A DNA stretch of 64,000 nt from NCBI GenBank assembly GCA_944390125.1, contig CALXOX010000001.1:120427-184426 (forward strand), read 5' to 3'. Every line of letters begins with the position of its first letter. Position 1 is the stretch's first letter. The position numbers are program-made. Source of the DNA: an uncultured Alphaproteobacteria bacterium (GTDB lineage: Bacteria; Pseudomonadota; Alphaproteobacteria; Rs-D84). Shown here piece by piece: positions 27,001-33,000 of the stretch.

Positions 27001-30000
27001 TTACATCATATTCAACAGACACAGTCGCTGCAGTTGCTTCTCGCAGCACAACAACTGTTTCGTCCAGACCAACGGTATCAACCAGAACGAATACGACTGG
27101 CAGATTACCAACTACAACAGTAAATTCAACAACAACGACGACGACAACGACCGAAACAGAAGAAGAAGTTTCTGACGAAACAGAAACAGTTGAAGAACCC
27201 GTGATAGAAAATAAGTCTTCGCAGTTTGATTCTGTTTTATCTACATCCAGCACGTCATCAGTTGATACGTCTGCAAATAATTTGGCAGAGATGATACGTC
27301 AACAACGAGCTGAACTTGATGCCCAAGACGCAATAAACACTGCCGCCGCAGCAACACAACTTGGCAGTAAAAACGCATGTGATGCGGGGTTACGCAGTTG
27401 TATGCAAGAAAAATGTGGTACAGATTTTACGGAATGTCGTGGTGATACTGACACAATATGGGGCGACAAAATGGATTCTTGCCGCCTACAACTGGAGTGT
27501 ACAGGCGAAGAATACCGTTTATTTTCTGCAGAGATAAAAGCCGACAGAGATGCGAACGCACAGCTGATGTCTTACAACGCAATATTAAAATGTGGCAACA
27601 AATACAATGATTGCATTATGACTGAATGCGGCACCACGTTCAGCAAGTGTTTGGGCAAAACAGCTGGCGATGCAGCGATAGCAAAATGTAAGACGATTGC
27701 TGATAACTGTGTACAACAAGATAGCGGTCTTGCCAGTCGTGCCATGCAAGTATTTGCAAACCTGCGTCAAGACGCAGAAGTTCAAGTACAAAAAGACGAA
27801 CAACGCTTATATGAATTGCGCGATCAAATGTCACAACAATGCACAATGTTGGGCGCAATGTTTGACGAACGTACATTCAGTTGCGTCTTTACTGTAAATT
27901 TCTATGCTGGTGAAGACTCAACATTATTTGCCTCTAAAAAGTTATACGCAGGCAATGTATTTAGTTGTACTCCAGACTGGTTTGGAATTGACGTTACAAC
28001 ATTTAAAGAAAATGCATACCGTTTAACCCGCGAACAAACATCTGCGTCTTCTTCACTGATGGGGTCGGGTCTTGGCGTTGCTGCTGGAGCGATAACGTCT
28101 GGTGCAATTGGACGTGCGATAGACCGTCAAAAGGCAGAAAATGCATTAAAAGACGCAAAAGAAGAACACGAGTCAACATACGGTGACACGTCCGAAGAAA
28201 AGTCTGACAAGAATACGAACACAAAAGACACAGATAACACTAAAGACTCAGGTTCTTCGAATAGTTCTGACAAACAGGACTCCACCACAACAGATAAATC
28301 AAGTGACACCAAAGCAACGGATAGTAAAAATTCAACAGGCTCGGAATCGGCAACAAAGGGAACCAAAAGTAAAACATCTAACACAACAAGCACCCGAAGC
28401 GTATCGAACAGGAAATAAACAGTGAAAAAATACTTAGTAAGCATCTTTACAATACTTATGGTTTTACCGGCAATGGCAGACATGACCATTTCTGGAACGG
28501 TGGTCGATGAAAAAGGAGAACCTCTGATTGGTGCAACTATTATCCCAGAAGGAATGACTAACGTAAAAATTTCTCGCGGTGCCACCTCTAACATAGATGG
28601 TAATTTTACAATCGAAAATTTTCCAAGTGGCCATAATTTACAAGTTTCTTATGTGGGCTATGAAACGCAAGTTTTACCGGCACAGGCAAATGTAAAAATT
28701 GTCATGAAAGAAGAAGTACAAGCTCTTAACGAAGTAGTTGTTACCGCAAAAAAGGGCGACCCATGCAAAAGCGAAGATTTGAAAAATAAATCTGAACACG
28801 CCTTACAAGGAATCTATAAAAGGAACGATAAAGGCGGCATAACTTGTACCATTACAAAATGTGAATATGGGTACAAAATAAACACAAAACAGAATACATG
28901 TGAAAAGCTAAATTGTACGCCGCCCAGATACCAATTAAACGCCGAGGGTGACGAATGCGAAGATCAAGTTGGTAAAGATTGTACACCTACAAACGCATCT
29001 AATTACAAAACAGCAAAATATAAATGGGAAAACAACCAATTAGTTTGTAAAATTAAAAAGTGCAATGACGGTTATTTACCAAACGATAATGGAACAGCAT
29101 GCGAAGTAAGCGAAGGTCCCTGCTCTGAGACACAGGTTGCGGCAATTGAAAATGCAACTGCTGGCGAACTCAAAAAAGGTGTTTGCCACGCCACAGAATG
29201 TAAAGGCGGTTTTGAACCCAGCAATGGAAAATGTGTTGCCATTTCTGGTAATTGCGATCCAATGCCAGAAAATGCAATATCTGCCCACCGTGAATGGGAC
29301 AACACTTCAAATGCAGAAGTTTGCATTGTAGATTCCTGCAAAGATAATTACACACCAAGTTCTGATAAAAAGTCTTGCGTATCTACTTTATCTGAAGAAG
29401 ATTCGAAAGCAAAGATAGCAGAATTGCAAGAAAACGCTGACGCTATGAAAGCCAAGGAACAATCTACCGCCAACAAGTTGTTAGGTGGTGCTGCAATTGG
29501 TGCGATGGGTATTGGTGGTATGCAACTTGCCTCTGCTGCCGCAGAACAAAAAGCAGATGCTGCTGCAGAAGCAGATATGGCTGCATATATTGCAACATTC
29601 AAATGTGATTATGGCCAAGGGATGAATATCAAGGGCGGAGAAGCAAACATTACCCTACCTGGTGCAAATGTACTATTACCGTTATACAATGAATATACAA
29701 CGCTTGCTGCAGATTTAAAGACTCGTAAAGAGGCACTTGAAATGGCACCTGGCATTGAATCCGAGGTCATATTAGATGCCGCAACATCTGGTCTATATGA
29801 CAACGAATCTATTGGGATAGATGGTGCATACACATCATTATCACGTGCTCTTATGGATGAAAATAGTGCAGACGCGGCAGCTTGGGCAGCACAAAAATCA
29901 GAAACTGCGTCTCAATTAAAGACAGGCGCAATTGTTGCGGGCGCCGGCGCGTTGGTTGGCATTGTGGGAAATATTTTGATAAATGATGTGGCAGATAAGC

Positions 30001-33000
30001 GCAAAGAAAATTCTGATGAAATTATCGCAAAATATGATGCTTTGCGCCAGACGATGAAACAAGATTTACAATCTGTAGAAAAACAGTCTGAACAAGAAGC
30101 AACATCTAATGCGCCAGCCACAGAAGAAGGCAAAGATGCAAACGCCCAAGATGAAACAAAAGTAGAAGAAAAGAAAGAAAGCGTAGTAGGAACAGTTTTA
30201 TCAACAATTGGTGGTAATGACACAGAGTCTGGGAATACAAATACAAGTATCACAGATGTGATATCTGCTGTAACTGGTAACACTGAAGAAAAAGCTGAAG
30301 TGAAAAATACACCAACACCAATTGTGACAATATATAATGAGTCTATGTTTGACAGCGGAAAGACAGAAATAAAGACGCCTACAACAAAATTAGACGAAGT
30401 TATAAATACATTAAAAACCAAAATTGGTTCAGAAACAGTATTTGAAATAGTGCTGGTGGCACATACAGACAAAGACAAGATTATTCAGACATCTAATTTG
30501 TGCAAAGTCGACAAAGTATGTACTAACGAGCAGTTATCTGCGGCTCGTGCAGAATCAGTAAAGGCATATATAACCAGCAAATGGTCAGACATGCCAAGCA
30601 CAGCAAAAATAACTACTTTACCAGTAGGTTCTGCATGTGCAAAGGGTACGACAAAAACGACCAAGGCGCTTGATCGAAAAGTTGACTTCTATGTGTTCTT
30701 TGCTGGCGAAGATTTAAGTTCTATAAATACCTGCAAAACATCAGAATAAGCATCCATACAATTTATCTCCATTGCCCCCACATAAAGTTTACATGTGGGG
30801 ATTTTTACATTCTATACAGTAATCAGATACATTAAATTTTAAACCATTACTACAACAGAGTGTCACCTAAACAATAAATAATAAAACAATAAATAATAAT
30901 ATACGCACATGTGAAATTACTAATACTGTGCACAACAAAATACAACTATAAAAGAATCAATAAAAACGCACAGCAGCCAAACGATATCACTGACAGCACA
31001 ACGCTACTCCTTACAAAGAGCTGACCATAAAAAATACCCCGCTGTAAAGCGGGATACACTACCAAACACCTTTTAAACAATTCTATTCACACGCCCCATA
31101 AGACTTTGCAACGGGGTAATTTTCTACGCATACACTACCTGAAACCGTGCAAGCTGTAGGCACCAACGTAACCGTCGCGGCATCAGCTGGTTTATAGTTT
31201 ATTTGTGCGTTCTTACACTGATTTAAATCTGTAATAGTTGCACATGCACGTTTCCAAGATGCACAATCAATTGCGGTACCAGTTGGTGTGATTGTATCTG
31301 GTAAATTCAGATTCCATTTAACATAGAAGTCTTTCAATTTTTCTATAGAGTAAGACTTACCATAACCAACCTGTGCCAACCCATCACCAACATGACAGCT
31401 AATATTGCTACGTTCAACGAACGCAGTTATCGCAGTCGCCAAACCACCGGCACCGACTCCAACACCCACACCAATACCGATACTCTTACCAATATTAGAG
31501 TTCTCACCATTTTTTAACAAATCTTCAATCTCACTATTGAAAATTTTATTCAAACGTTCAATATCTACACTTATTTGAACAGAATTTACACAGCTGCCAT
31601 CGCCAGAATTGCAATATATACTTTCGCCATAAGCACGCGCCAAGTTTAGCGGCTGGAAAGAGCAGAATTCATTTTCTGACGCTGCTTTATCTTGTAACGC
31701 CTCTTCGGCAGCAGCCGCATTCTGTGCAGCAACAAAATCTGTACACTGCTTTAATGTTGTATATCCTTTACCAACACAAGGAGACAGCGTATCTACATAC
31801 TTAAAGCAATCTTCCAAGACATTATAGTTTTTACACTGTGCTTCTACTTGTGAATAAATTGTCGTATCAGATGAAGAAACTTCAACTGTATTACATTTCT
31901 TTACAGCTTCCTTTACCTGAATATATTTGTCATACAACAAAACAATTTCTTCACACTGTGACTGAGAAATAACGTCAACCGTGGCAGGAATTGTGCTTTC
32001 CAAGTACTCACTGATAGAGCCAAAGTTTGCGTCAGTCCGTATTTCCTCCGTCAGCATTTCACGATGCTTCTTATTTGTACAATCAAACGCACGGTCACCA
32101 TGTCCTGCGATTGCCCCAACACCGGCACCTACAACTGCACCACCACCTATACCTACAACTGCCGCAGTACTAGTTTGATTCATTAAAGAAAAGCCGAACA
32201 AATCTTTATTGCAAGTAAAAGTATCACCGGCTAATTTCCAGACTTCTGCTGGCTGATCATCACCCGCGGCACCAAACAACCAACTGTTCTTAATTTGAGT
32301 GTCTTTATTATAGGCAGCAACACGAATCCAACATTCTGCAGTCGTTGGATCCCAACGCGCGTAATGGCCACGTTGTCCATCAACCCCAGAATTGCCGTAA
32401 TTCAACTCAACACCCTGAGGGTTATTCTTTATCAAAACATTACCATTCTGACTGTTATATGCACCAACACCAACATTATACTCCGCCGTTACATTCCCAG
32501 AGTTAGACACGGCAGTAAAAGCAGAACCATAAGTATTCACATCTAACAGCAAACAGGTGTTCTCCGCCTGATTAGGTGTTAGCCCCGTTTTACGCAGAAC
32601 GAAGTTATAATACGCTGGTTGAACTTTACGCGCATTAAAATCAATCCACACATCTGCAGCAGAACGATATACATATGAACAGTTCTTACGAACATCAGCT
32701 ATACATTTTTCAACCTGGGTTGCACATAAGTTCATTCCATTGACAATAGAATTACGCAAATCTTCATTAAACAAATCATTCAATCCATTAGGCAAAGCCC
32801 CTGTATTTACACACATAAGTATATCATTCATACAGTCGTCAACTGTATATTCAGAATCTTTCACACCACCATCTGGGCATTCCGGCTCAACTGGTTTATC
32901 TGGTTCATCCGGATCATCCGGTTCGCTTGGTGAAACTGGTGGCAAACTTGGGGAGGTATTACCGACAGTAAAATTAGGCAAAGTAGGCATTGTTGGCATA

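Follow-up and report, generated by a model that had tools for sequence, protein, structure and literature searches.

A barrel-less SusC-type head, cysteine repeats and an undescribed helical core joined to an OmpA_C-like tail in a conserved locus of an uncultured gut alphaproteobacterium

Several well-described envelope systems each resemble a part of the protein considered here. SusC/RagA transporters (Bt1763 and BT3090; 6ytc and 9hfj) carry an N-terminal extension (NTE) ahead of a TonB box, a plug and a 22-strand barrel; in Bt1763 the NTE is followed by the TonB box 82-DEVVVTG-88, deletion of the TonB box abolishes transport, deletion of the NTE prevents growth of B. thetaiotaomicron on levan, and the function of the NTE is not known (PMC7782687). 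Both elements are periplasmic in this native setting (PMC7782687). PorE (PG1058), from Porphyromonas gingivalis and its type IX secretion system (T9SS), is a periplasmic multidomain lipoprotein in which TPR repeats and a beta-propeller are combined with a carboxypeptidase-regulatory-like domain and a C-terminal OmpA_C-like domain (PMC7192894, PMC5053529), and in its co-crystal structure D576, N584 and R591 hold the stem-peptide diaminopimelic acid (DAP), against which F541 packs (PMC7192894). YiaD of E. coli (2k1s), Pal, and the MotB/TssL/TagL proteins place a Gly/Ala-rich or hydrophobic segment and a linker before an OmpA_C-like domain, and CPL1-like (PF21671, fungal secreted CPL1) and EGF-like (cEGF) proteins share a four-cysteine C-x4-C-x2-G-Y/F beta-hairpin repeat. 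Our study reports on a gene at 28422..30749 on the plus strand of a 64,000-nt window of contig CALXOX010000001.1 (the window being the whole stretch of DNA analysed), from an uncultured alphaproteobacterium. Its product combines, in this order, a SusC-type NTE, a TonB-box-like strand, Cys repeats, a helical core, a linker and an OmpA_C-like tail; the domains and their order, the intact binding residues, the conservation and the synteny are all demonstrated. The constituent parts are mostly known, while their combination and the helical core have not been described before, and the protein is a further variant of the OmpA_C-anchored envelope proteins in which a barrel-less SusC head and CPL1-like repeats are joined to an undescribed core.

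The gene is an uninterrupted frame of 775 codons with a GTG start, and coincides exactly with the open reading frame of the original prediction, which had been made from the sequence alone. The start codon lies 3 nt beyond the stop of the preceding gene and has the motif AGGAA 8 nt 5' of it. Homologs from other samples open with the same MKKYL...LPAMA signal peptide, and because they share this N-terminus we regard the gene model as sound; inspection of the signal peptide revealed no lipobox Cys. Pfam mapping together with fold prediction and search recovered all three of the domains first proposed, namely the head, the Cys repeats and the tail. The architecture had been called unusual, which holds relative to curated families; among metagenomic relatives it is found hundreds of times, the full-length arrangement being seen in well over 100 independent protein clusters from many samples. 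The original prediction overlooked the TonB-box-like strand, the core of ~220 aa and the conserved locus around the gene. No database source names the family and we found no publication that describes it. An all-against-all BLASTP of the locus proteins found no paralog of the target in the window, a promoter scan returned candidates no better than those of shuffled sequence, and a terminator scan found none on the plus strand 3' of the gene.

Table 1. Features of the target protein, its locus and the remainder of the window. Residue numbers are those of the 775-aa product; pLDDT (predicted local distance difference test) values are those of an AlphaFold2 model of the whole protein that draws on 55 homologs.
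Feature	Residues	Position	Strand	Basis and details
Signal peptide, MKKYLVSIFTILMVLPAMA	1-19	28422..28478	+	Read from sequence; predicted signal peptidase I site between AMA and D; pLDDT <50, N-terminus kept in homologs
SusC-type NTE / CarboxypepD_reg-like Ig-like domain	20-100	28479..28721	+	Pfam, NCBIfam, Foldseek; pLDDT ~80
TonB-box-like strand and flexible linker, ALNEVVVTA	101-109	28722..28748	+	Alignment to SusC-like TonB box; pLDDT <50 (residues 100-111)
Cys-rich beta-hairpin repeats	112-322	28755..29387	+	Pfam, repeat motif; pLDDT ~80
Unannotated core	321-542	29382..30047	+	Amphipathic helix, GA1, acidic head, GA2, start of next helix; pLDDT low (residues 325-534)
GA1, Gly/Ala-rich hydrophobic segment, GGAAIGAMGIGGMQLASAAAEQ	355-376	29484..29549	+	G363, I364 and G365 invariant
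Acidic head of the core	377-500	29550..29921	+	Net charge -10; many invariant columns; single invariant Cys395 in FKCDYG
GA2, Gly/Ala-rich hydrophobic segment, TGAIVAGAGALVGIVGNILIN	501-521	29922..29984	+	Ladder G509-G513-N517-N521
Helix (525-562) and disordered acidic/Thr-rich linker	525-629	29994..30308	+	Model; pLDDT ~88 (525-562) and <50 (580-628)
OmpA_C-like domain	630-775	30309..30746	+	Pfam, NCBIfam, Foldseek, conserved residues; second Cys pair C739/C771; pLDDT ~90 (630-770)
Conserved lineage-specific locus of nine to ten genes (I, A, B, C, D, T (target), E, F, G, H)		20006..37445		Synteny in L001-L009, 45-82% identity
Gene C, Cys-rich		25942-26910	+	No Pfam family; 20-nt gap to D
Gene D, Cys-rich, one Gly/Ala-rich segment, low-complexity tail		26931-28418	+	No Pfam family; 3-nt gap to target
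Gene F, conserved in locus		33295-34311	+	Two strongly hydrophobic N-terminal helices, long acidic Pro/Glu-rich spacer, ~90-aa C-terminal domain without family
Autotransporter, 1008 aa		1373-4399	-	Pfam: Chlamydia-type polymorphic membrane protein (Chlam_PMP) repeats, PF03797 beta-domain
Large serine recombinase (probable mobile element)		4864-6408		
AbiEii-like AAA ATPase (probable mobile element)		7141-8331		
Weak REP_ORF2-G2P-like replication protein (probable mobile element)		10214-10729		
Choloylglycine hydrolase family protein, bile-salt-hydrolase-like		14117-15205	+	PF02275, E 2e-64

The head closely resembles the NTE of SusC. CarbopepD_reg_2 (PF13715) matches residues 23-107 along its entire length (profile positions 1-88 of 88; 59.2 bits against a cutoff of 32.2, E 4e-16), the Pfam family CarboxypepD_reg scores 45.2 bits, and the model displays the seven-strand Ig-like fold of these domains. 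The best PDB match in Foldseek is the NTE of the SusC protein BT3090 (9hfj; target-normalised TM 0.83, 36% identity), 6ytc is matched as well (target-normalised TM 0.69), and a profile of the family run against PDB sequences finds SusC homologs at E 6e-20. The resemblance extends beyond the NTE: the target N-terminus, signal peptide included, aligns from one end to the other with fragments of SusC-like transporter N-termini (38-44% identity), 103-NEVVVTA-109 aligns with their TonB box, and the alignment breaks at K110, precisely where the plug begins (YG.QKK..TGSV). Most family members contain the same L-x-E-V-x-x-T-A strand. Read from this alignment, the head is best described as a SusC N-terminus truncated just before the plug. 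The head had been predicted to be a plug-like CarboxypepD_reg domain, of which the family assignment stands; 'plug-like' does not, the domain being an Ig-like NTE of the kind found ahead of a TonB box and plug. In place of plug and barrel the target continues into Cys repeats, and its host is an alphaproteobacterium rather than a member of the Bacteroidota. The SusC/RagA model TIGR04056 is matched at positions 2-85 of 981 only (E 6e-26), Pfam gave no match to the plug and barrel families PF07715 and PF00593, and we rejected an identity as a TonB-dependent transporter on the lack of plug and barrel and on the TIGR04056 score of 91 bits against a cutoff of 368.25. A search with the NTE by itself returned 15 candidates, all short fragments and three with a transporter plug, which lend thin backing to the SusC link. 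That an NTE and TonB box detached from their barrel are conserved in another phylum argues that they form an autonomous periplasmic docking module, and a detached NTE offers a simpler system in which to find the partner of this domain.

The head is followed by four full Cys-rich repeats and one short module, which together contain 18 Cys and follow the motif C-x(20-26)-C-x4-C-x2-G/N-Y/F-x(5-8)-C, with five occurrences of C-x4-C. Four stretches match the CPL1-like family (36.1 bits against a Pfam cutoff of 27.4). This region had been described as EGF/sushi-like: sushi modules were not recovered, and the EGF resemblance is limited to the motif C-x4-C-x2-G-Y/F, since no EGF or sushi profile of Pfam matched the target up to E 1, and cEGF matched three of 62 family representatives (E 7e-5) and not the target. 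The likeness to CPL1-like and EGF-like proteins is confined to the Cys framework, and the target differs from them in being a bacterial periplasmic or envelope protein. Across the family the number of repeats ranges from 0 to 17.

The tail has the fold and the binding residues of an OmpA_C-like domain. Foldseek aligns it with probability 1.0 to TssL, MotB, MotS, the C-terminal domain (CTD) of PorE, A. baumannii OmpA (AbOmpA) and Pal (entries 4b62, 3khn, 9ljl, 6top, 3td3, 5m38 and 1oap; target-normalised TM 0.48-0.74 for single-domain chains), its beta-alpha-beta-alpha-beta-beta arrangement superposes on the solved OmpA_C-like domains, and the family profile finds solved OmpA C-domains among PDB sequences at E 5.5e-18. 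In NCBIfam the OmpA part of long-form TssL (TIGR03350) is matched at E 2e-8 (34.3 against a cutoff of 139.8), and the MotB-type models (MotB, MotD and MotS) score 17-18 against cutoffs of 264-300. F643-D644, T682, D683, N702, L705, R709 and V713 are invariant in the 55 homologs, and F643, D683, N702 and R709 are the counterparts of F541, D576, N584 and R591 of PorE, so that the residues expected at a DAP contact, with the motif TD...N..LS..RA..V, are all in place. The Pfam OmpA family (PF00691) matches residues 642-732 with 26.0 bits (E 1.2e-5), which falls short of its cutoff of 27.2 because of an 11-residue insertion in the binding loop; many orthologs pass this cutoff, among them that of the genome L009 with 56.5 bits. 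The insertion carries C694 and C700 and separates D683 from N702, giving an Asp-Asn spacing of 19 in place of 8. The motif VAHTDKDK...LSAARAESVKAYI, cited earlier as canonical OmpA_C, is thus present (residues 679-717) in a form that is not quite canonical. Two types of tail occur at this position in the family, a canonical one with an Asp-Arg spacing of 15, which is that of many members, and the Cys-insertion type of the target. The two types, at residues 680-706 (30459-30539), pair with different upstream linkers, those of the canonical type containing additional CPSDATGTYPDC-like Cys modules.

From these data we propose that the tail binds the DAP of peptidoglycan stem peptides non-covalently, a function well supported at the level of sequence and fold; at that same level, the invariant F-D, D, N and R residues bear out the earlier description of the protein as peptidoglycan-tethered. 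A YceG/MltG gene in the window (61111-62145), together with the RodA, MreB and MrdA reported for the order Rs-D84, to which Candidatus Enterousia is assigned (PMC12306168), indicates that the organism makes peptidoglycan. The shared F/D/N/R residues and the multidomain layout, in which a carboxypeptidase-regulatory-like domain is combined with an OmpA_C-like one, liken the target to PorE, but the target lacks the lipobox, the TPR/WD40 repeats, the propeller and a T9SS, and has Cys repeats and a novel helical core in their stead. We rejected orthology to PorE, given the absence of a lipobox, TPR or WD40 from the target and the alphaproteobacterial hosts of the family.

The densest block of invariant alignment columns (residues ~323-540) lies in none of these recognisable domains, and instead falls within the core. 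A search with the core (residues 321-542) of 1.84 billion cluster representatives, clustered at 50% identity, found 838 proteins at E <=0.001 and 652 at E <=1e-30; among the matches listed, the core is 47-83% identical to that of the target, the proteins are 261-1662 aa long, and the core may stand anywhere from the N-terminal to the C-terminal end. A Pfam scan of the 62 family representatives found OmpA in 28, CarboxypepD_reg in 24, CPL1-like repeats in nine and trypsin in three; no family covered the core in these representatives, nor did any Pfam or NCBIfam family in the target. The family profile left the middle region unmatched among PDB sequences, and no specific structural neighbour of the core was found. 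On this evidence the core is the constant, family-defining module, to which exchangeable N- and C-terminal modules are attached, and it is the probable anchor of the protein. It stands for a large family (>800 clusters at 50% identity) for which no curated model exists, and evidently serves a set of modular proteins as their constant anchor.

A model of the core alone, built from a more diverse alignment, reached a pLDDT of 75 and places a small beta-hairpin and helices between two long helices (349-392 and 483-522). These helices contain the Gly/Ala-rich (GA) segments GA1 and GA2; T501, G502, G507 and G509 of GA2 are invariant, and G516, N517 and N521 nearly so. The free-energy sums for membrane insertion are +5.0 kcal/mol for GA1 (family mean +5.6) and +1.8 kcal/mol for GA2 (family mean +3.7), compared with -1.9 to +0.1 for the clear transmembrane helices of F, A and B that served as controls. 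Many family members stop 5-40 residues past GA2 with a short charged tail, and in many orthologs the linker that follows holds additional Cys-rich modules. Exactly one Cys is found in the core in 255 of 259 members, and the number of Cys in the two flanks is even (in 88% and 95% of members, respectively); the lone core Cys is a free thiol or else forms part of an intermolecular bridge. YiaD, Pal, MotB and TssL, whose domains were matched by the family profile or the fold search, share the succession of Gly/Ala-rich or hydrophobic segment, linker and OmpA_C-like domain, but the target differs from them in having a conserved 125-aa head flanked by two GA segments, a Cys-bridged 11-residue loop insertion (in its subclade) and a large N-terminal head and stalk. 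Its likeness to the glycine-zipper lipoproteins (YiaD/Gly-zipper_Omp) is one of composition and arrangement only, as it has no lipobox.

The target belongs to a locus whose order, A-B-C-D-T-E-F-(G)-H, is kept in nine metagenome-assembled genomes (MAGs; L001-L009) wherever the contig reaches, with identities of 52-82% for A and 43-64% for T; B has no match in L009. These genome matches are nine uncultured gut Alphaproteobacteria, one of which is named Candidatus Enterousia intestinigallinarum, and a tenth, a Porphyromonadaceae MAG, matches the NTE only. The contigs of two divergent family members (P0150 and P0235) are too short to show gene context. The host is a gut alphaproteobacterium with a reduced genome, a relative of Ca. 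Enterousia; Enterousia and the order Rs-D84 have genomes mostly below 1 Mb, lack both a tricarboxylic acid cycle and a respiratory chain, and possess many membrane proteins that are unexplained (PMC12306168). Relatives with genomes below ~1 Mb are thought to be partner-dependent, and the ~17-kb locus is a leading candidate to encode the envelope or attachment machinery in this uncultured lineage.

Most products of the locus are secreted and Cys-rich, and no Pfam family was found in the neighbours of the target except ankyrin in A. The product of A (1234 aa) has a signal peptide and ankyrin repeats, and its homologs are named only 'ankyrin repeat domain-containing protein'; searches of PDB sequences returned ankyrin alone for A and nothing for E. 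The product of E (691 aa) has two Gly/Ala-rich segments with Cys-rich stretches on all sides of both. Genes C and D are probably co-transcribed with the target, and the all-against-all BLASTP linked C, D and H only through a weak Cys motif. A comparison of the core profile with every neighbouring protein in hhalign gave probabilities of <=1.5%, because of which homology of the Gly/Ala-rich segments of D and E to the core is not demonstrable. The locus is partitioned differently in L009 (8225-11829), where the D ortholog (659 aa) has a C-terminal beta-rich domain and, beyond its single GA segment, Cys repeats of the T type, and the T ortholog (528 aa) consists of its own signal peptide, the core, a Cys linker and a canonical OmpA domain, which is evidence that adjacent genes have shuffled modules. 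Once the signal peptide is removed, an odd number of Cys is left in the products of D, H and I and in the target, which would allow intermolecular disulfides. The layout of F is loosely like that of TonB-like spacers, and Pfam gave no TonB_C match.

Our structural models, coupled with the sequence comparisons, suggest a Sec-exported, wholly periplasmic, peptidoglycan-bound modular scaffold that is held by a glycine-zipper-like hairpin, a model to which we give about even credence; from these data we infer its topology, its oligomerisation, its partner and its physiological role as an envelope scaffold or tether of a partner-dependent bacterium. Following Sec export and removal of the signal peptide, every soluble module would reside in the periplasm and the OmpA_C-like tail would secure the protein to the wall. 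The hairpin formed by the Gly/Ala-rich helices may oligomerise, join a membrane, or both, most plausibly at the outer membrane, as in glycine-zipper outer-membrane lipoproteins; the autotransporter encoded at 1373-4399 implies that an outer membrane exists. The stalk would keep the NTE/TonB-box head at a distance at which it could dock with a partner, for instance TonB or the product of a conserved neighbouring gene. As there are two hydrophobic helices, and hence an even number of crossings if there are any, head and tail are expected on one and the same side of any membrane, and the periplasmic side is favoured because the only export signal is a Sec signal peptide, because the tail must reach the wall, and because SusC has its NTE and TonB box in the periplasm. 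The even Cys counts of the flanks fit an oxidised, extracytoplasmic location. The earlier description of a peptidoglycan-tethered stalk protein is reasonable as far as it goes; it leaves out the core, and the simplest topology puts the stalk in the periplasm.

A number of observations weigh against this periplasmic model. The OmpA score of the target is marginally sub-threshold and its binding loop is interrupted; the core model is of moderate confidence (predicted TM score 0.48, and a pLDDT <50 in the full-length run); no Pfam glycine-zipper family matched up to E 1; the free-energy sums estimate insertion only crudely and take no account of position; some family members have the TonB-box-like motif in degenerate form, and no TonB, ExbB or ExbD was seen among the genes of the window; and the topology is itself read from sequence and models. 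The N-terminal modules, moreover, vary so widely in kind and copy number that they look more like those of surface proteins. This last point leads to the main rival, which we regard as possible though rather unlikely, in which the core would be a new outer-membrane anchor or translocator, the stalk and NTE would face a partner or host, and the tail would clamp the base of a surface-displayed stalk or adhesin to peptidoglycan. Hypervariable N-terminal modules around an invariant core do resemble passenger/anchor systems, many members end just past GA2 as a C-terminal anchor would, CPL1/EGF-like Cys repeats are typical of extracellular proteins, weakly hydrophobic GA segments could bypass the inner membrane and reach the outer one, and the organism, for which dependence on a partner is proposed, is rich in unexplained membrane proteins (PMC12306168). 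However, the hairpin places the stalk in the periplasm with the wall-binding domain unless there is an extra crossing, Pfam and NCBIfam show no beta-barrel, T9SS CTD or autotransporter domain in the protein, the NTE and TonB box would be displaced from the compartment they occupy in SusC, and the most conserved segment would, unusually, be exposed to the membrane or the surface. A bolder form of surface display, which we think improbable, would make the core an alpha-helical glycine-zipper outer-membrane anchor or translocator specific to reduced-genome gut Alphaproteobacteria, with interchangeable passengers (SusC NTE heads, stalks of 0-17 repeats, trypsin-like proteases) and the tail as wall clamp, and would join it with the neighbouring Cys-rich and ankyrin proteins in a disulfide-linked attachment organelle for partner-dependent life; if this were true, the SusC NTE module would work as an autonomous interaction unit.

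An anchor in the inner membrane of the MotB/TssL/TagL type would instead have GA1 and GA2 as transmembrane helices, the acidic head of the core in the cytoplasm and the stalk and tail in the periplasm, and might serve as a stator-like part of a trans-envelope machine encoded by the locus. Foldseek does place the tail nearest to the periplasmic domains of TssL, MotB and MotS, with partial NCBIfam matches to long-form TssL, MotB, MotD and MotS; the order GA2, helix, linker and OmpA-like domain recalls MotB, the lone invariant Cys and the peak of conservation in the acidic head would suit a reducing, partner-binding compartment, and the locus is conserved over nine genes. We nevertheless consider such an anchor unlikely. 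An inner-membrane span is disfavoured because the GA sums lie well above those of real transmembrane helices, because the head of the core is acidic, and because Cys-rich, presumably oxidised modules surround the GA segments of the L009 D ortholog and of E; Lys and Arg are not enriched on the loop side relative to the terminal sides, contrary to the positive-inside rule, the family scores are far under their cutoffs (34 against 139.8 and 17.8 against 300), the lineage lacks flagella (PMC12306168), and the locus has no genes of the type VI secretion system. A MotB/TssL stator role was rejected on the weak transmembrane propensity and the sub-cutoff scores. We find it very doubtful that the protein is a barrel-less TonB client, which would relay force from TonB-ExbBD along its rigid stalk to a core that is anchored to the wall and associated with a membrane, where one use could be the gating or remodelling of an envelope complex. 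The head does match SusC-like N-termini through the TonB box and diverges where the plug would start, NEVVVTA parallels the experimentally essential DEVVVTG of Bt1763 (PMC7782687), and most homologs retain the motif, which is predicted to be flexible; but it may simply have been inherited with a captured domain, it is degenerate in several members, the NTE is present in only 24 of the 62 representatives and so is not essential to core function, and with no TonB system in the window and no respiratory chains in the lineage the energy source of the motor would be in doubt. The sub-threshold OmpA score, the GTG start and the different split of the locus in L009 could, finally, point to a chimeric gene call, an assembly join or a decaying pseudogene, the chance of which is practically nil: such an artefact is effectively refuted by the recurrence of the architecture in well over 100 clusters, the synteny in nine MAG species, the frame that stays intact over 775 codons, and the strong purifying conservation of the core and the binding residues.

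Elsewhere in the window, four open reading frames of 192-432 aa without a Pfam family (58412-60847 and 62185-63483, minus strand) adjoin YceG/MltG and a tRNA-Pro gene (63709-63785). The autotransporter, taken together with the Cys-rich envelope proteins, recalls the chlamydial envelope. A probable integrated mobile element (4823-13300) adjoins a tRNA-Gln gene (4823-4896); its GC content is 0.30-0.34, compared with ~0.40 elsewhere, and several of its open reading frames are without a family. The choloylglycine hydrolase encoded beyond it suits a gut habitat.

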